Shown here: positions 5,656-58,334 of the stretch, in pieces
Numbering within the stretch: the first letter of the stretch is position 1
How the letters are laid out: the number at the start of each line of letters is the position of its first letter
Assembly: GCA_018819065.1 (NCBI GenBank)
Contig: JAHJQL010000075.1
Location: forward strand, 625-64,624
Direction of reading: 5' to 3'
From: Nanobdellota archaeon
GTDB taxonomy: Archaea > Nanobdellota > Nanobdellia > Woesearchaeales > GCA-2686295
Length of the DNA: 64,000 nucleotides
Position numbers and translations under genes: made by a program
Notes under the pieces: model-generated
The model's input: the letters and a program-made list of their open reading frames with translations, nothing else
What the model was told of the DNA's origin: nothing
Database searches by the model: none

Positions 5656-6936
5656 TTATTTTCTCTCCTTATTGAGCACGTAATAAGCCCCCCTATAAGA
5701 GCCAACTTTTTTGACATATTTGAATTTCAACAACTCGTTAATATCTGCGATTGAAGTCCCAAAAGAAGTATTGTTGAGTTCCATATACTTTTTAGTTTTA
5801 ATGGATTTATGTTTTTTCAGAAATTCAATGACTTTCTTTTGTCGCTCGTTTAAATCAGCATAGTCTTCTATTGGTTTCTGTTTTCCTTTTTGATTGTATA
5901 GCACAATACGGAAAAAATGTTCATATATCCCAAATTCTGGATCTCTTAAACCTTGTTCGCGCATAGAATTAATCATTCTTGGAACTCCAGAGCCAAGACC
6001 TTCTACATAACCATAATCACGTAATAATCGGTAAATGATGGGATTTCTTCGTACCGATAATGTCCCAAACAATTCTCGTGGCAACCCTATCGGTAAAGAG
6101 CCAGGACTTGTTAATTCAATCCGATTGCTAAAAAGATAAATCTGGATAGAATCTTTACTAAAATAATCCCTATGAGCAACTGCATTGACAATGGCTTCAC
6201 GCACAACATCAATGGGATACTCGTGTTTTTCTTCTCTTTTGGCTTTATCAGTTATTTCTATGCTTTTGGAGAGGTTCTTTTTCACAAAAGAAAGCGATTT
6301 TTCTATTGAACTTACAGGGTCATCTTGAATCATCTGATGAGAGATGATTTTTACAGGCTCTGTACCATCAAATTGTGCAAGTTTAATCTCAACTTGTGGG
6401 AAAAATTCGGCTGGCTCTTTTCCAAAGAATAGGAGAGTTGCATTTTTAATCTTTAAACTTCCATTTTTAGAGGCAAGTTTTGAACTAATGAGAAAATTCT
6501 CTACTGAATTATGTTTCAAGAAATCTTCATGACCGCGAACTTTCAGATACTCTTTTATTTTTTCAATTTCAATATCTTTAATTGTGGCATCGCTAGCAAT
6601 TTCATCAAAACAGAGAATTTGTTTACTTCTCAAGAAATCTACTAACTGATTACCCTCTATCTTCTTGAGGGTGCTTCCAACCTTCACATAAACTACACCT
6701 TGAAATGTGTGGAATGTATTGTCAATGGCTTTCTGAACAATAACTGCAATAATCTTTTTTGCATCAATAGTATAAACCTGAATTTGTGGAATAAGTGGCG
6801 GTGAAATTGTTTGTGCGACAGCTGAAATTTTCTGCTGTACTTTATCAACGTCCTCTTTAATTCCAACAATATTCTTTTTTGCATCAACGCCAACAATAAC
6901 CATGCCCCCGTAAGTATTAGCAAACCCGCACATCAA
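5656..6936 (-). CDS. AlbA_2 (Schlafen-like) / HATPase_c_4 putative DNA-binding regulator (RecG-like annotation class)
   Basis: 426-aa ORF. It has FANTYGGMVIVGVD (AlbA_2 core), REAIVNAVAHRDY (ATPase-like domain) and a C-terminal wHTH. The frame stays open 33 more codons upstream (to 7035) and encodes LEVIESGETQEVELKQSF, the usual AlbA_2 N-terminus, but with no ATG/GTG/TTG. Confidence 0.75.
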   Translation of the reverse strand: MMCGFANTYGGMVIVGVDAKKNIVGIKEDVDKVQQKISAVAQTISPPLIPQIQVYTIDAKKIIAVIVQKAIDNTFHTFQGVVYVKVGSTLKKIEGNQLVDFLRSKQILCFDEIASDATIKDIEIEKIKEYLKVRGHEDFLKHNSVENFLISSKLASKNGSLKIKNATLLFFGKEPAEFFPQVEIKLAQFDGTEPVKIISHQMIQDDPVSSIEKSLSFVKKNLSKSIEITDKAKREEKHEYPIDVVREAIVNAVAHRDYFSKDSIQIYLFSNRIELTSPGSLPIGLPRELFGTLSVRRNPIIYRLLRDYGYVEGLGSGVPRMINSMREQGLRDPEFGIYEHFFRIVLYNQKGKQKPIEDYADLNERQKKVIEFLKKHKSIKTKKYMELNNTSFGTSIADINELLKFKYVKKVGSYRGAYYVLNKERK

Positions 6937-21407: not shown

Positions 21408-22420
21408 TTTTCCATGTCATGATTAACATATGCTTTTTTTATAGTTTTCTTAGCGCTTAAACCATAATAGCTTAATAAGATCAGCCCAATTATACTCCAA
21501 ACAATATCTCTTGCTCTTGTAAGAAGGGCTAATGCTATTCCTGCAACGCTTTTCATCCCAATCATTGGGAAGACAAATACTTGGCTTGCTTCAACAGCGC
21601 CAAGACCAAGTGGTATTGGAAATAAGAATGCTGCTCCAAGAAAGCTTACAATCAAGAATATTGCTGTAAAAGAAACATCCTGCCCAAGCATTAACAATAC
21701 TAGTTTAAATTCAAGAAACATTAAAATCCAAGCAATTAGCGACATAAGCATCGCCATAAGGAAATACTTTTTGTCATGCTGAAAAAATTTTATTATGAGA
21801 CCCTCAAAGTTTTTTATTTTATACTCAGTTATTTTCAAACTTTTTATTCTGTCTATCTTTAGAAGATGAAATAACCCTAAGATAAATCCTTTTCCACTCG
21901 CAAGCCTGTGATAAATAAAAATCATTCCACCAAGAAGAATTGTTGATGACAATATCAACATGACACTTGTTTTACCTGGCAGGGCGAACTTGAAAACAAC
22001 TAAGATTGCCCCCATGAAGAAAAAAAGTGCAGATGAAGAAATCTCTATAGTCTTGTCTATTATCACAGATGATAACGCCTTTGGAAACTTTATGTCATGA
22101 TTTGATAACAGCAAAGCCCTGATGGGCTCACCGCCAATCTTTGCAGAAGGTGTTAAATAACTAATACCATAACCAACAATCATGTAGTTAAAGATGTTTA
22201 AAAAAGGAACTTTCAAATTCTGACTCTTTAATATAGTTTTCCAACGCCAAGCCAGTACAATCATGATGGAAACTGAAATAAGAAGGTAGCCGACAATGTT
22301 TTTGGTGTCTGCCGCCATGAACGAATCTAATACTTCCTTGAACGAAACAAACCTAAGAACAAAGAATAAAGCAACCAAACCTATGACTAATGATGCAATC
22401 AACCAAATCTTTTTTTTCAT
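21404..22420 (-). CDS. Flippase-like / lysyl-phosphatidylglycerol-synthase TM-region family membrane protein (UPF0104)
   Basis: 338 aa with about 8 predicted TM helices. PSAKIGGEPIRALLL is typical of UPF0104/TIGR00374 proteins. Confidence 0.65.
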   Translation of the reverse strand: MKKKIWLIASLVIGLVALFFVLRFVSFKEVLDSFMAADTKNIVGYLLISVSIMIVLAWRWKTILKSQNLKVPFLNIFNYMIVGYGISYLTPSAKIGGEPIRALLLSNHDIKFPKALSSVIIDKTIEISSSALFFFMGAILVVFKFALPGKTSVMLILSSTILLGGMIFIYHRLASGKGFILGLFHLLKIDRIKSLKITEYKIKNFEGLIIKFFQHDKKYFLMAMLMSLIAWILMFLEFKLVLLMLGQDVSFTAIFLIVSFLGAAFLFPIPLGLGAVEASQVFVFPMIGMKSVAGIALALLTRARDIVWSIIGLILLSYYGLSAKKTIKKAYVNHDMEK

Positions 22421-22518
22421 CGAGTTTAAAGAGAGATGATTCGTATTTAAATGTTTAGATGGTTGACGTTATTCGTTTTCTATTATGAAAAATTAACAGC
22501 TAATAAAATTATTTTTTT

Positions 22519-22770
22519 ATTAAAAATCTCGATAGAGATTTTGTTTGGGTTTAATACTCAGAAATAATTTGTGATTTCTGGTACTAGAAATGTTCCATTT
22601 CTCTGTACCCCAACCTTTAGGTCGAGATTTTTAATTCAGAGAAATGTTTTTGCATTTCTCGAACCAGCAACTTTGTTGCTGTGTTCCAAAAATTCAACTT
22701 TTAAGATAGTCGAGCGTAATACCCCAACCTTCAGGTTGGGGATAGCCGACTATCATCGAATTTTTGTTAT
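22519..22770. repeat. 252-bp direct repeat, copy A (3' flank of tRNA-Arg)
   Basis: It aligns without indels to 23161-23412 (offset 642 nt), and I count 9 substitutions. It consists of consecutive hairpins, for example aaaatctc-gata-gagatttt, ggtac..gtacc, cagcaac-ttt-gttgctg and ccccaacc-ttca-ggttgggg nested in gatagtcg..cgactatc. Confidence 0.85.
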
Positions 22771-22777
22771 AAACGTA

Positions 22778-23123
22778 CGGACCTGGGGGGACTTTCGTCA
22801 GAAACAACTCGTGTGGCTGAGCGAACTTGAAGTGAGCGAATGCCGCACTTCAGTGCCAGCGCCCTCAAAACAAATGTTTTGGGGTCCCAAAAATCTTTGA
22901 TTTTTGAGGAAATGAGTGTCGCTGTTTCGAACCCCCGACCTACAGCTTAGGAGGCTGTCGCGCTATTTGCCCACAACCCTTATCAGCGTTATCAAAAAGC
23001 TGCGCTTTTTGGAAACTCCCAAAAATCTACGATTTTTGATAGTTGATGGGGATTATGCTCCCTGTCAGTCGCGGTGCTTTGCACCAATGTGCTGAAGATT
23101 GTTCCAGGCTGCGCTACAGGTCC
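22778..23123 (-). tRNA. tRNA-Arg(CCT) with two long introns (D-loop, about 136 nt; T-loop 59/60, 134 nt)
   Basis: The minus strand reads GGACCTG-TA-GCGC-AGCCTGGAAC [intron about 23100..22965] A-GCGC-G-ACAGC-CTCCTAA-GCTGT-AGGTC-GGGGG-TTCGAA [intron 22925..22792] T-CCCCC-CAGGTCC-G. All four stems are perfectly paired, and the anticodon CCT lies at 22951..22949. Confidence 0.85.
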
Positions 23124-23160
23124 GTGTAATAATCAGAAAGTATCTCTTTTTTTAAATATT

Positions 23161-23412
23161 ATTAAAAATCTCAACAGAGATTTTGTTGGGGTTTAATACT
23201 CAGAAATAATTTGTGATTTCTGGTACTAGAAATGTTCCATTTCTCTGTACCCCGACCTTCAGGTTGAGATTTTTAATTCAGAGAAATGTTTTTGCATTTC
23301 TCGAACCAGCAACTTTGTTGCTGTGTTCCAAAAATTCGATTTTTAAGATAGTCGAGCGTAATACCCCAACCTTCAGGTTGGGGATAGCCGACTATCGTCG
23401 AATTTTTGTTAT
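23161..23412. repeat. 252-bp direct repeat, copy B (5' flank of tRNA-Arg)
   Basis: See copy A. The substitutions fall in hairpin loops (gata vs aaca) or improve or maintain pairing (caacc..ggtcg vs cgacc..ggttg). Confidence 0.85.
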
Positions 23413-23507
23413 CTTTATTTAAATTTTTCTGTAATTCCTAGGAATATTTGTATATCTTAATCTTTTTTTTCACAAAATATTAAAAACACCAAACAATTAA
23501 TGTTTTT

Positions 23508-24461
23508 ATGAAAATAAAGCAGCTTCCGGAAGATTTTATCGTCAGAGAAATTCCTGATTATGAGAAAGAAGACGGTCCTTATTCAGTGTTTATTTTGAAA
23601 AAAAGAAATTACACGACTGAGAGGGCCATACAAAGAATCTGTGAAGCATTGCACATAAAGAGAAACAGGGTTGGCTATGCAGGAATAAAAGATAAGGTTG
23701 CAGTGACTGAACAGTACATCTCTTTGTTTAAAATTTCAAAAAAAATCGTTGCATCATTAAAACTAAAAGACTTGGAGCTGGAATTTGTCTCGTTCTCAAA
23801 AAATCCTATTTCTCTTGGAATGCTTAAAGAGAATAGCTTTGAAATAATTGTTAGGGATCTTGAAAAAGATTTCAAAATAAGTGATTGTGGAAGAATAAAG
23901 AATTATTTTGACAGCCAAAGATTCTCGCACAATAACGCGGTTGTTGGGTTGGCATTGCTAAAGAGGGATTTTAAGAAGGCAGTGAACTTAATTTTGGAGA
24001 CTGAAGGAGATTATGAGTGTGAAATGAAAGAGTTTTTGAAGTCAAACCCAAACAACTATGTTGGTGCCCTTGGGAAAATTCCTCATAAGATACTGTTACT
24101 ATTTATCCACGCCTATCAAAGCGACTTATTCAATAAAACCATAGACTTGCTTGACAACAAAAAAAATGTTCTTGTACCAATAGTTGGTTTTGGGACGGAA
24201 TATGAAGATAAAAAGATGAAGAGTATAATTCAAGACTTTCTTTCACGCGATGGATTGACTGAAAGAGATTTTGTCATTCAACAGATAAAAGGGCTAAGCA
24301 GTTTTGGAGAGCAAAGACCTTTGTATGTCTCTTTAAAAAATCTTAGTGTTGGGAGTTTGAAAGCTGATGATTTGAATAAGGGCAAGTATAAATTAAAAGT
24401 TAGTTTTTCGCTTCCAAAAGGATCTTATGCAACTAATGTTTTGAAGAGTTTAGTGAGCTGA
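23508..24461 (+). CDS. truD: tRNA pseudouridine(13) synthase TruD/Pus7
   Basis: N-terminal MKIKQLPEDFIVREI and catalytic GYAGIKDKVAVTEQ (KD...T.Q) motif. Confidence 0.85.
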   Translation: MKIKQLPEDFIVREIPDYEKEDGPYSVFILKKRNYTTERAIQRICEALHIKRNRVGYAGIKDKVAVTEQYISLFKISKKIVASLKLKDLELEFVSFSKNPISLGMLKENSFEIIVRDLEKDFKISDCGRIKNYFDSQRFSHNNAVVGLALLKRDFKKAVNLILETEGDYECEMKEFLKSNPNNYVGALGKIPHKILLLFIHAYQSDLFNKTIDLLDNKKNVLVPIVGFGTEYEDKKMKSIIQDFLSRDGLTERDFVIQQIKGLSSFGEQRPLYVSLKNLSVGSLKADDLNKGKYKLKVSFSLPKGSYATNVLKSLVS

Positions 24462-31625: not shown

Positions 31626-32291
31626 ATGATTTCCAAAAGCATGAGTATGAAATTAAAATTAACACCAGAACTTTCAGAGTTTATAGGTATGCATATAGGA
31701 GACGGAACCCTCTATAAGACAAACCGTGCTCTTGTTTGGGAAATGCGAGGTGATTTAAAAGAACAATCTTTCTACGACAACCATGTTATACCTTTATTAA
31801 AAATACTATTCAATGATGATTTCAAAGGCAAAATCAGAACTGGTGGAAAAAGAGGAGTTTATGGCGTTCAAACGACAAACAAATCATTAATTCAAACAAT
31901 TATATCTTTTGGTATTAATCCGGGCAGAAAGTCAAATATATCAATACCTGAAGATATATTAAATTCAAACTTTTTGATTCAAACAAGGTTCTTAAGAGGC
32001 TATTTTGACACTGATGGATGTGTCCGGTTTGACAAGCCCAATAAACATAAAATAGCTTATTATCCTAAGATAGAATTTGCATCTTCTTCAAAAAAATTAC
32101 GAGACGACTTGAAATTATTGTTAAGAAGAGTTGGACTTGAATCCTACACTTGGGATGTGAAAAATAAGTTGGAGTTCAAACTCTGTTTAGCGGGAAAAAT
32201 TAAGACTTTGTTCTGGATAAAAAATATTTGTTCTAAGAATCCAAAACATTTAGATAAATTTTTAAAGTGGCTAAAACTACAAATTAATTAA
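31626..32291 (+). CDS. LAGLIDADG homing endonuclease (two-motif, free-standing)
   Basis: Two LAGLIDADG motifs, LSEFIGMHIGDGTL and FLRGYFDTDGCV, about 100 aa apart. The ORF is not embedded in any recognisable intron or intein and ends 8 nt before a tRNA-Ser 5' module. Confidence 0.8.
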   Translation: MISKSMSMKLKLTPELSEFIGMHIGDGTLYKTNRALVWEMRGDLKEQSFYDNHVIPLLKILFNDDFKGKIRTGGKRGVYGVQTTNKSLIQTIISFGINPGRKSNISIPEDILNSNFLIQTRFLRGYFDTDGCVRFDKPNKHKIAYYPKIEFASSSKKLRDDLKLLLRRVGLESYTWDVKNKLEFKLCLAGKIKTLFWIKNICSKNPKHLDKFLKWLKLQIN

Positions 32292-32295
32292 TGTT

Positions 32296-32316
32296 TCACG
32301 CCGAGGTCGCACAACG
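32296..32316 (+). other. Duplicated tRNA-Ser 5' module (leader + acceptor 5' strand + D-stem), copy A
   Basis: tcacGCCGAGGTCGCAcAAC at 32296-32315 matches tcacGCCGAGGTCGCAtAAC at 32456-32475: 16 exact nt, one mismatch, then 3 more. No matching 3' acceptor strand or T-arm lies between the copies. Confidence 0.6.
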
Positions 32317-32459
32317 GGTTATGCTCCGTTGATGCGCAAAGTGCGGCACAAGACCGCACAAATAAAAAAATCACATTCACGCAGAGGTTGCATTAGTCAA
32401 AAAACAAAAAAGTTTTTTGGAAATGCTTCTCGTCGTTCGCTTCATTACATTACACTCAC

Positions 32460-32676
32460 GCCGAGGTCGCATAACCTGGTATTGCGCAGACAAGAAAAGA
32501 AATACTCTTTTTTGGCGTAAGATTGCTAAGGACTTGTTTGTCTTTATGAAACCAGCAGTACCGCACAGATCCTGTTCCTTCGGGAATTGTGGGTTCAAAC
32601 GACGATTTCGCTCGTCGGCAACGAGGGACAGCGTAAAGCTGTCCGAAGAAACGTTTTGAAAATCCCACCCTCGGCG
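32460..32676 (+). tRNA. tRNA-Ser-like gene with a T-loop (59/60) intron and an interrupted, unresolved anticodon arm (GCT candidate)
   Basis: GCCGAGG-TC-GCA-TAACCTGGTAT-TGC-G ... GTGGG-TTCAAA [intron 32600..32662] T-CCCAC-CCTCGGC-G. The acceptor and T stems are perfect. G73, a 3-bp D-stem with a long D-loop and a possible extra arm (GTTCC-TTCG-GGAAT) suggest class II Ser. The only Ser-compatible loop is TTGCTAA at 32523-32529. No contiguous 5-bp/7-nt anticodon arm exists. Confidence 0.6.
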
Positions 32677-32865
32677 TTTTCTCTTATTTTTGACGATTTT
32701 ATCGTCGATAAACTATTGTCAAAGTTCAACACAGTAGTTAGGTGTTGGCGTAATCTACATATAGCCGACATTAAAAAACAGGTCACTTTATGATCCTCTG
32801 AATTTTTTAATGAAATGGCGTTTTTTCGTAAAATACATAATAATAATACTCCAATAATATTACGC

Positions 32866-33000
32866 ATGATATACAATCACGTCATAAGGGTAAAACTAAC
32901 AAGAAGTCAACTTGAAAAAGTAAAGCAGGATGCAGAGCGAATGTGATTTCGATATCCGCCACAATATATACGATGGTTCGTACTTAACAAATCAACAGAA
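32866..33000 (+). pseudogene. Disrupted ribbon-helix-helix (CopG-like) gene remnant
   Basis: ATG at 32866 gives MIYNHVIRVKLTRSQLEKVKQDAERM* (RHH beta-strand plus helix 1 pattern). A shifted frame continues NVISISATIY..., resembling the usual G-S-S-YIR helix 2. Confidence 0.3.
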
Positions 33001-33105
33001 GAAAAAATAAATCTTATCTATTGGATGTTAAAACGGATAGAAAATCCTAATGCATGGAAAGAAGAAATAATAGAAGAATACAAAAGTAAAAACCTAAAGA
33101 TTTAA

Positions 33106-57329: not shown

Positions 57330-58334
57330 ATGGTTTATATTTATAAGAAAAGGATTGGAGAAAAGGATTATTATTATCTTAGAATATCGGTTAAAAATAA
57401 TAATAAGATTGTTACAAAAGATCTTGCTTATTTGGGGAGTGACTTAAGTAAAATAAGTGAAAAATTAGATTCTTTATCTTCTTACCAAAAAGAAATTCGA
57501 AAAGCTTACAAAACAATCAATAGTTTTATACAAACTAATCGCTATATCGAGAATGTTCAGTCTCAAAAGATTAAAACTAACTCTTTTTTGTCTAAAAAAG
57601 ACTTATATGAAGTTGAAGCGTGTAAACTTCATTGGAATCAAAAAATTCAGAAAATGGATGAACTGACAAAATCAGAGATATTAAAGAACTTCATCATAGA
57701 ATTTGCTTTTAACACTGCATCTATTGAAGGTAATACGATAACCTTAAAGCAAGCACAAAACTTGTTAATGGAGAATCTGACACCAAAAAATAAGACTTTA
57801 AAAGAAATATATGATCTTCAAAACACACAAAAAGTATTTTTAAGTCTGTATGATAATTTAAAACAAGAATTAAATCACAAACTAATATCAAAAGTTCATG
57901 ATTCATTGCTTGAGAATATTGATAATAGAACAGGATACAGAACAGATGATGTTAGAGTTTTTAAGATGAACTTTAAATCAACACCTGCAAAATATGTAAA
58001 AATTGACATGGATATTTTATTAGATTGGTATGAAAAAAACAAACGAAAACTACACCCATTAGTGTTAGCAACGCTTTTTCATCATAAATTTGAGAAGATT
58101 CATCCGTTTATGGATGGAAACGGTCGAACCGGAAGAATGCTTATGAATTTTATATTATTAAAAAATAATTATCCGCCAATAATAATCAGAAAGAAAAATC
58201 GAACGGAATACTTGAACAAATTAAACAAAGCAGATGGATGTGACCTGGATAAGACTGAAAATAAATATTATGATGATTTAATTGAGTTTACAAGTTTTGA
58301 ATTAAAAGATAATTATTGGAACTTATTTTTGTAA
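57330..58334 (+). CDS. Fic/DOC-family protein, paralog
   Basis: Fic motif HPFMDGNGRTGRMLMN. The N-terminus (YIYKKRIGEKDYYYLR) parallels the first copy (YVETIKKGKKEYYYLT). Confidence 0.85.
   Translation: MVYIYKKRIGEKDYYYLRISVKNNNKIVTKDLAYLGSDLSKISEKLDSLSSYQKEIRKAYKTINSFIQTNRYIENVQSQKIKTNSFLSKKDLYEVEACKLHWNQKIQKMDELTKSEILKNFIIEFAFNTASIEGNTITLKQAQNLLMENLTPKNKTLKEIYDLQNTQKVFLSLYDNLKQELNHKLISKVHDSLLENIDNRTGYRTDDVRVFKMNFKSTPAKYVKIDMDILLDWYEKNKRKLHPLVLATLFHHKFEKIHPFMDGNGRTGRMLMNFILLKNNYPPIIIRKKNRTEYLNKLNKADGCDLDKTENKYYDDLIEFTSFELKDNYWNLFL

Follow-up and report, generated by a model that had tools for sequence, protein, structure and literature searches.

Why should a tRNA gene in an archaeal genome lie between two nearly identical chains of stable hairpins? 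The question is raised by a 64,000-nucleotide stretch of DNA from a Nanobdellota archaeon (GenBank assembly GCA_018819065.1, contig JAHJQL010000075.1, positions 625 to 64,624), analysed here at its full length and called the window, in which a tRNA-Arg(CCT) gene is bracketed by two direct repeats, copy A at 22517-22770 (+) and copy B at 23159-23412 (+). An earlier note on this DNA had proposed an undescribed element that flanks the tRNA on both sides and shares hairpin modules with its two introns. Our analysis leads to a different answer. The repeats are very probably copies of a palindrome-associated transposable element (PATE), a non-autonomous member of the IS200/IS605 family, and are likely to have entered two separate TTAT sites, the tRNA being a bystander.

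The repeat search returned two units of 254 nt each with 96% identity and an offset of 642 nt, and a MAFFT alignment of copy A with copy B contained nine substitutions and no indels. The pair is thus as described earlier, except that the true unit extends 2 nt further to the left. The window contains no further long repeat, and a hidden Markov model (HMM) of the family (nhmmer) matched copies A and B only, with E values of 3e-15 and 5e-9. Folded as RNA, the copies are far more stable than their shuffles on either strand (z -10.8 to -12.5) and the same is true of single-stranded DNA (z = -13.0); that both strands fold equally well is as expected for DNA palindromes. The fold consists of two domains, the left closed by a 14-15-bp stem, P1, and the right by a 12-bp stem, P3, formed by long-range pairing of CAAAAATTCGA.../...TCGAATTTTTG; the copies also have a local hairpin of the A4/T4 type. 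Of two additional hairpin modules, one lies inside the left domain and one between the domains. The only open reading frames (ORFs) over the repeats, at 22571-22900 and 23213-23422, cross the boundaries between element and tRNA, and we rejected a protein-coding reading of the unit because these frames straddle the element borders.

The unit is dispersed. A right-end pattern scan of one metagenome recovered 15 further copies, 152-254 nt long, on 15 contigs and with 15 different right flanks. Each of the 15 ends in ...GTTAT and is followed by unrelated DNA, which with the two window copies gives at least 17 distinct right-flank junctions. All copies follow TTAT (once TCAT) and end with TTAT, and the sequences outside are unrelated on the two sides. 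The copies vary in a characteristic manner: L121 is compact with 152 nt, L131 consists of the compact form and one 50-nt module, L124 has lost the left hairpin and L133 is a fusion of the left and right hairpins, while the 254-nt form of the window equals the compact form plus two modules of ~50 nt. ARAGORN placed none of the 15 metagenome copies beside a detectable tRNA, a program that misses intron-bearing tRNAs. We assign the unit to the PATEs because it is geneless, carries IS200/IS605-like hairpins on the same strand, uses a fixed tetranucleotide, makes no target duplication, is present in many copies and has variants with core deletions. With 254 nt, or 152 nt in the compact form, it is too short for a transposase and it contains no real gene. 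The class has been described before: PATEs were defined in haloarchaea, for example as the HqIRS families of Haloquadratum walsbyi (Dyall-Smith et al. 2011, PMC3119063), and are mobilised in trans by TnpA (Meers et al. 2023, PMC10055086). The element is therefore an ordinary dispersed non-autonomous IS200/IS605-type transposon and not a tRNA-specific device: with at least 17 right-flank junctions, no other copy next to a detectable tRNA and a place in a described class, we found the dispersed miniature element without a link to tRNA genes that the earlier note had named as speaking against its own proposal.

The anatomy of the window copies can be followed from end to end. In copy A, a target-like TTAT (22517-22520) precedes the element, which finishes with the terminal TTAT at 22767-22770; copy B has the same orientation and its element end is at 23412. 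The left-end domain of copy A (22519-22635, +) is enclosed by P1, in which 22519-22532 pairs with 22622-22635, and within it are the conserved GGGTTTAATAC, which is similar to archaeal TATA boxes, and, at 22608-22626 (+), the left subterminal hairpin CCCCAACCTTTAGGTCGAG. In copy B, the arms of P1 are at 23161-23175 and 23263-23277 and the left hairpin at 23250-23268 (+). The right-end domain of copy A (22687-22770, +), where P3 pairs 22687-22698 with 22755-22766, contains an inner stem GATAGTCG.../...CGACTATC and the right subterminal hairpin CCCCAACCTTCAGGTTGGGG (22722-22741; 23364-23383 in copy B; both +). The two subterminal hairpins have the same orientation and the form AATAC-CCCC..CC-TTYA-GG..GGGG, are 114 nt apart in the window copies, and each sits in the domain whose long stem pairs the extreme end of the element. 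The ends themselves have only an A-run and a T-run in common and form no true inverted repeat, no target sequence is duplicated other than the shared TTAT, and a T5 run is found immediately inward of the right end. The two modules missing from the compact 152-nt copies are Ins1, a ~50-nt two-hairpin insertion TCAGAAAT...CTCTGTAC at the site AATAC|CCC (22558-22608 in A, 23200-23250 in B, +), and Ins2, another two-hairpin insertion of ~50 nt between the left and right domains (22636-22685 in A, 23278-23327 in B, +). Such nested modules are present or absent among near-identical PATE copies, in the window as well as in L061 (~2700-2750), L071, L084, L042/L080 and L012. Several independent lineages have them at one position, AATAC|CCC at the base of the transposase hairpin, where TAC seems to be repeated. 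They were not found outside PATEs in the sequence available, and they are reminiscent of the SMR-A repeats of Haloquadratum (PMC3119063).

The hairpins connect the unit to a complete insertion sequence. Scanning species-representative genomes for TACCCCRRCCTTYAGGTYGRG, we found more than 110 loci against roughly 10 expected by our own information-content estimate; the counts are a lower bound, and the window's own species is not among the matches listed. Elements of ~115-180 nt with the architecture of the window unit occur in at least eight metagenome-assembled genomes (MAGs) of Woesearchaeota/Nanoarchaeota and in some of Methanosarcinales, and one Woesearchaeote MAG (PCYA01) holds at least seven copies. 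Their common plan is T(T/C)AT | TGAAAAT-armX ... GGGTTTAATAC-[left hairpin]-armX'-ATTTTCAAT on the left and CCAAAAA-armY ... TAATAC-[CCCCRACC TTYA GGTYGGGG]-AT ... armY'-TTTTTG-TTAT | on the right. In Methanothrix and Methanosarcina, the same hairpin is the left end of a complete IS200, 27 nt inside a conserved boundary TTAT|TAC..., and a 157-aa Y1_Tnp gene follows ~130 nt after it (Pfam E = 2.6e-37), its protein being labelled 'IS200/IS605 family transposase' in public sources. A second hairpin, ATACCCCATCCTTTAGGGTGGGG, a close variant of the first, is found 3' of this gene inside a 10-bp stem, and the similarity among copies stops right after ...TTTGAT. This IS200 is ~750 bp long, with an intact gene at at least seven loci and deletion derivatives at others. 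The right hairpin of the window unit, also written TACCCCAACCTTCAGGTTGGGG, matches the left-end hairpin of the IS200, and the left hairpin is a same-strand variant of it. For the hairpin sequence itself, we found no paper in the searchable literature, and the PATE family, widespread in Woesearchaeota/Nanoarchaeota, has apparently not yet been described.

Two further observations were made during the hairpin scan. Single occurrences of the core TACCCC(R)(R)CCTTYAGGTYGGGG, lacking the flanking architecture of the archaeal elements, are found in MAGs of Bacteroidales, Marinimicrobia, Methylobacter and other bacteria (L013, L016, L019, L020, L031, L043, L048, L051, L059, L082, L086, L087 and others); they may be sites resembling repetitive extragenic palindromes (REPs) or else termini of other IS200/IS605 elements. 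The same hairpin recurs in another frame in a second element family, ...GACATCCTTTCGA-TACCCC..GGGG-AGGATGTCAT| (L022, L027, L065, L076, L078, L070, L112, L117, L033), and L070 has a fragment of a 30%-identical Y1 transposase alongside.

IS200/IS605 TnpA binds the left and right hairpins on single-stranded DNA, cleaves at the tetranucleotide and at the right terminus, circularises the excised strand and re-inserts it. Applied to the window element, a Y1 TnpA supplied in trans would bind both hairpins on one strand of single-stranded DNA, cut on the 3' side of both the left and the terminal TTAT and release a single-stranded circle, to be re-inserted 3' of another TTAT without target duplication. 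In this manner, copies A and B would have entered TTAT sites in the AT-rich spacers on both sides of tRNA-Arg(CCT), and the joins expected at the unoccupied sites are ...ATTATTTTTTTAT|AAACGTACGG... and ...TTTAAATATTAT|CTTTATTTAAAT.... Such a single-strand mechanism would account for the TTAT on both sides, the lack of a duplication and the shared orientation of nearby copies, A and B being alike in orientation because transposition is strand-specific.

The domain structure is conserved far beyond the window. We compared one representative each of 12 lineages. In 11 of them, the 14 nt that follow TTAT pair at 13-14 of 14 positions with a partner immediately 3' of the left hairpin (P1); none of 2,000 arm shuffles was as good in 7 of these 11 cases, and at most 16 were in the other 4. 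The 12 nt before the terminal TTAT (P3) pair at 11-12 of 12 positions in all 12. The arm sequences of both stems differ among lineages while the pairing is kept, and RNAalifold on the same set gave 28 pairs, 13 of them with compensatory double changes. This strong covariation indicates that the structure has been under selection across lineages and bears out the earlier proposal of selection on secondary structure rather than on the 69-109-aa ORFs predicted there.

The nine differences between copies A and B give a more mixed picture. They had been described as falling in loops or changing pairs in a stem-compatible manner, which is correct for 22531 G>A and 22623 C>T, a true compensatory pair in P1, and for 22618, a loop position; 22533 T>C likewise turns a G.T pair into G-C. 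The description does not hold for 22696 and 22755, which weaken P3 in copy A, so that 2-3 of the nine differences weaken stems in that copy. Nor is the caacc/ggtcg hairpin, cited before as a stem-compatible change, an example of one, as copy A has an A.C mismatch there and copy B a G.T pair. Copy A is the more diverged of the two, about eight of the nine differences being its departures from the family consensus.

Are the two copies products of one event? The constant 642-nt offset and 96% identity would fit a local duplication of one copy with or around the tRNA, which would leave the repeats as recombination substrates able to delete the gene. Closer comparison within the family points elsewhere. 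The left half of copy B is 98-99% identical to L131 and L130, copies on other contigs, and 93.5% identical to copy A, while copy A is 99.3% identical to a further copy, C, which is one of the 15 in the metagenome and adjacent to the PGI gene. A and B are not each other's nearest relatives and therefore appear to be two independent insertions at TTAT sites rather than products of duplication, to judge from these sequence identities. One assembly contains what recombination between repeats would give: in L008 (GCA_018819945.1, JAHJPC010000058.1; 5034-5289), the left part of copy A, on the side of the LPG-synthase gene, continues through one unit into the flank that copy C has towards PGI. The join is seen in this assembly only, and in three other assemblies the contigs end inside the repeat at both the A and the C places. 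Because these three cut copy C at contig ends, we judge the join an artefact and L008 probably a chimeric assembly, a real A x C recombinant being also possible; a mis-join is at least as good an explanation of it as recombination. Overall, local duplication is a very unlikely origin of the pair.

The 388 nt between copies A and B contain only a promoter and the tRNA gene. ARAGORN and Rfam (gathering thresholds) reported no tRNA or other RNA gene in the 64-kb window, and we established the tRNA-Arg(CCT) by hand from the precursor fold and homologous tRNAs. The gene (22778-23123, -) has three exons, 23123-23103, 22966-22926 and 22791-22778, which match the intron-less tRNA-Arg(CCT) at the syntenic site of a relative. 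Intron 1 interrupts the D-loop (23102-22967, boundaries +/-2 nt, -) at a relaxed bulge-helix-bulge (BHB) motif, and intron 2 the T-loop (22925-22792, -) at a canonical helix-bulge-helix-bulge-helix motif with bulges of 3 nt, AAA and AGU, on either side of a 4-bp helix, UUCG/CGAA. A cut after the second bulge base gives the spliced T-loop UUCGAAU, identical to that of L003, whose homologue is intron-less. In its minimum-free-energy fold, the 345-nt precursor shows the acceptor, D, anticodon and T arms as well as two long extensions, and this fold, with the exons of the relatives, corroborates the tRNA-Arg with two introns reported earlier. A TATA-like box, TATTTAAAAAAA (23147-23158, -), lies ~25-35 nt upstream of the tRNA 5' end and adjoins the left end of copy B; its sequence and its likeness to the promoter region of the relatives' tRNA suggest that it is the tRNA promoter. 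The gene looks functional, because the precursor folds to a cloverleaf with BHB introns and the box is found upstream. Since an intron-rich tRNA is present where ARAGORN and Rfam report none, standard finders probably undercount the tRNAs of this lineage. We also considered the repeats as att sites of an element integrated in the tRNA gene and rejected this, as they lie outside the tRNA and the 388-nt interval contains no integrase.

The order of genes is older than the repeats. Relatives with ~60% identical TruD keep the succession of an LPG-synthase-like gene, tRNA-Arg(CCT) and truD, and their spacer of 170-240 nt has no repeat unit. Because these relatives carry the tRNA between the same genes and no element, we regard the repeats as additions in the lineage of the window. 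The tRNA and its promoter are inverted in the window in comparison with the relatives L001 (5860-5995) and L003 (5915-5991), in which the gene points to truD and ends 7-10 nt ahead of its start codon. The inversion shows that the segment was rearranged and could be taken for the trace of a composite transposon, TnpA using the left end of A and the right end of B to move the whole 896-nt block with the tRNA and its promoter inside. Copies A and B have the same orientation and each has intact ends, and IS200/IS605 transposases mobilise any DNA bounded by the two kinds of end, left and right (PMC10055086). Nevertheless, the gene is at the syntenic position of the relatives and was not imported, and neither a second such block in the window nor an A- or B-type junction among the metagenome matches was seen. 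We regard transfer of the block as improbable, and two insertions of a PATE beside a resident tRNA gene as the better account.

Several findings weigh against two PATE insertions with the tRNA a bystander. We found no TnpA in the window, in ~130 kb of contigs of the same population or in the fetched Woesearchaeota loci (tblastn with two TnpA queries; Pfam on 19 window ORFs), and the named sequences among the best 120 TnpA homologues all come from methanogens. No empty site and no filled/empty polymorphism was recovered among same-species contigs, including the context of copy C, reached via the PGI gene. Of the 15 metagenome contigs, only that of copy C is tied to the species of the window. 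Same-species contigs either carry copies or break within them (those of other assemblies, L005, L006, L009 and L010, stop inside units), and the nearest element-free genomes have only ~60% protein identity. The argument for mobility therefore rests on copy number, flanks and variants. The window's only two copies also adjoin the only tRNA found in it, which a rough estimate makes compatible with chance. With ~17 copies assumed within roughly 100 kb of intergenic DNA, a rough figure of our own, one would expect of the order of 0.3-0.8 pairs to fall in a common spacer of ~0.5 kb, so two copies in one spacer are unremarkable; tandem or adjacent copies are seen in other lineages too (L097, L115).

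A last point against concerns the long stems. P1 and P3 are conserved well beyond the known needs of hairpin recognition by TnpA, so that a further role, perhaps as RNA, is conceivable. The unit might then be a functional structured RNA, either a guide or scaffold similar to omega-RNA or a processing or terminator module for the tRNA. The covariation reaches beyond the transposase hairpins, GGGTTTAATAC is TATA-like and a T5 run is found before the element end, PATEs often encode omega-RNAs (PMC10055086), and read-through from the tRNA is possible because copy A begins, at 22770, 7 nt after the tRNA 3' end. Yet Rfam gave the repeat unit no match: the whole window was negative at gathering thresholds, and a search of 22300-23600 at E<=10 gave only matches of chance level (SmY, miRNA models). 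No TnpB/IscB gene is present in the window or upstream of any family member, where the ORFs are ordinary host genes, and the autonomous relative is of the IS200 type with tnpA only. Moreover, both strands fold equally well, and the tRNA has a promoter of its own between copy B and the gene. A primary function as RNA is consequently improbable. Other candidates of this kind, a known ribozyme, a retrozyme-like self-cleaving repeat, signal recognition particle RNA, RNase P and omega-RNA, are disfavoured by the Rfam result, and a scan for bacterial promoters and terminators gave nothing informative.

The tRNA introns have hairpins of their own. Intron 2 contains the 19-mer CAAAAATCTTTGATTTTTG (22888-22906) and intron 1 a pair, CAAAAAGCTGCGCTTTTTG (22993-23011) and CAAAAATCTACGATTTTTG (23020-23038). 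The earlier note had counted a related A5/T5 hairpin six times across repeats and introns; the count stands for a loose motif, while the strict form CAAAAATY-N3-14-RATTTTTG occurs in the window only twice, with short loops and both times in the introns, against 0.05 expected. Its arms are similar to those of P3, another Woesearchaeote (L061) has the identical intron-2 19-mer within an insertion that interrupts one of its PATEs, and a 30-nt match of 93% was found in intergenic DNA of L123. Taken at face value, these likenesses could mean that the repeats derive from introns, or seeded them, through a shared mobile hairpin module. The two intron hairpins are, however, copies of each other and represent roughly one event. 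The arms in common are short, 8-9 nt, and rich in A/T, with CCAAAAATY occurring eight times in the window where five are expected, and the family HMM found nothing significant in the introns. The module itself is rare (5 occurrences in 334 kb), and the relative L001 already has a D-loop intron without it. The hairpin module proposed as common to repeats and introns is thus real, and the link it makes is weak, a lead only. Of the candidates named before, a mobile element is upheld by the dispersed copies, whereas an intron-derived one is highly improbable. The likeliest view is that introns, like spacers, are neutral places that collect small hairpin debris.

Intron content also varies among relatives: L003 has none, L001 only the D-loop intron, and the window both the D-loop and the T-loop intron of ~135 nt each. 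It is conceivable, if very doubtful, that the A5/T5 hairpins and the ~50-nt modules form a separate class of tiny insertions that target the feet and loops of single-stranded DNA hairpins, in PATEs as well as in the D- and T-arms of tRNAs. If so, such insertions would survive as, or enlarge, BHB introns in tRNA genes, DPANN archaea would acquire and lengthen non-canonical tRNA introns from IS200/IS605-related debris, and the block A-tRNA-B might be mobile as a composite.

As for its surroundings, the window contains a CDP-archaeol synthase gene, and the best matches of the neighbouring genes are from DPANN archaea (Woesearchaeota/Nanoarchaeota), to which it belongs on this evidence. A free-standing 221-aa ORF (31626-32291, +) is annotated as LAGLIDADG_3 in an identical public contig (L004/L005), and the ~800 nt after it (32292-33105) have ORFs of at most 93 aa and match nothing in Rfam. 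A protein with Schlafen/AlbA_2 and HATPase_c_4 domains is encoded at 5656-6936 (-) and a Fic/DOC-domain protein at 57330-58334 (+). The 3' end of the window (56-64 kb) has a G+C content of 27-30%, compared with ~34-37% elsewhere.

The locus has practical and mechanistic consequences. Hairpin-rich units of this kind yield spurious ORFs and can pass for exotic RNA genes in annotation. They also break MAG assemblies: in four assemblies of the window's population, contigs end inside the unit, and in one, two loci have probably been mis-joined. The hairpin shared with the IS200 of Methanothrix/Methanosarcina, with no transposase seen in the DPANN sequences, poses the question of who mobilises the element, and its covarying, end-locking stems are a clean natural data set on the structural needs of single-strand transposition.

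How does the family compare with known systems? Similar to classical miniature inverted-repeat transposable elements, the window unit is miniature, non-coding, multi-copy and structured and breaks assemblies; unlike them, it lacks both a target-site duplication and true terminal inverted repeats. With the REPs and REPINs of the REP-associated tyrosine transposases (PMC3116915, PMC2817692) it shares short extragenic palindromes of a TnpA-like Y1 enzyme, but a REPIN consists of two inverted REPs with a short spacer, whereas the window hairpins are direct, at least 100 nt apart and placed within defined TTAT ends. Omega-RNA PATEs and the guide RNAs of TnpB/IscB (PMC10055086) are likewise short, structured and non-autonomous, with the right end in a conserved fold; for the window unit, in contrast, no TnpB/IscB partner and no Rfam match to omega-RNA or HEARO was found, T5 lies inside the right end and the autonomous relative has tnpA only. 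Insertion sequences of the IS200 group have the hairpin core preceded by AATAC, the left boundary TTAT|, a right terminus of the T(T/G)AT type and no target duplication, all as in the window unit, from which they differ in their tnpA, the sequence identity being limited to ~25 nt of the hairpin. The PATEs of haloarchaea are of other hosts, the window family being found in DPANN and Methanosarcinales, and their hairpin sequence is different; their nested inserts are the ~110-bp SMR-A repeats that target PATE palindromes in Haloquadratum (PMC3119063), in place of the ~50-nt two-hairpin modules, and only in the window family is each end locked in a covarying stem of 12-15 bp. In other respects the two agree: both are non-coding and 50-250 nt long, with near-terminal palindromes similar to those of IS200/IS605, a conserved terminal oligonucleotide and no target duplication, and both occupy many unrelated sites, have variants with core deletions and hairpin fusions, and carry small insertions nested at their palindromes.

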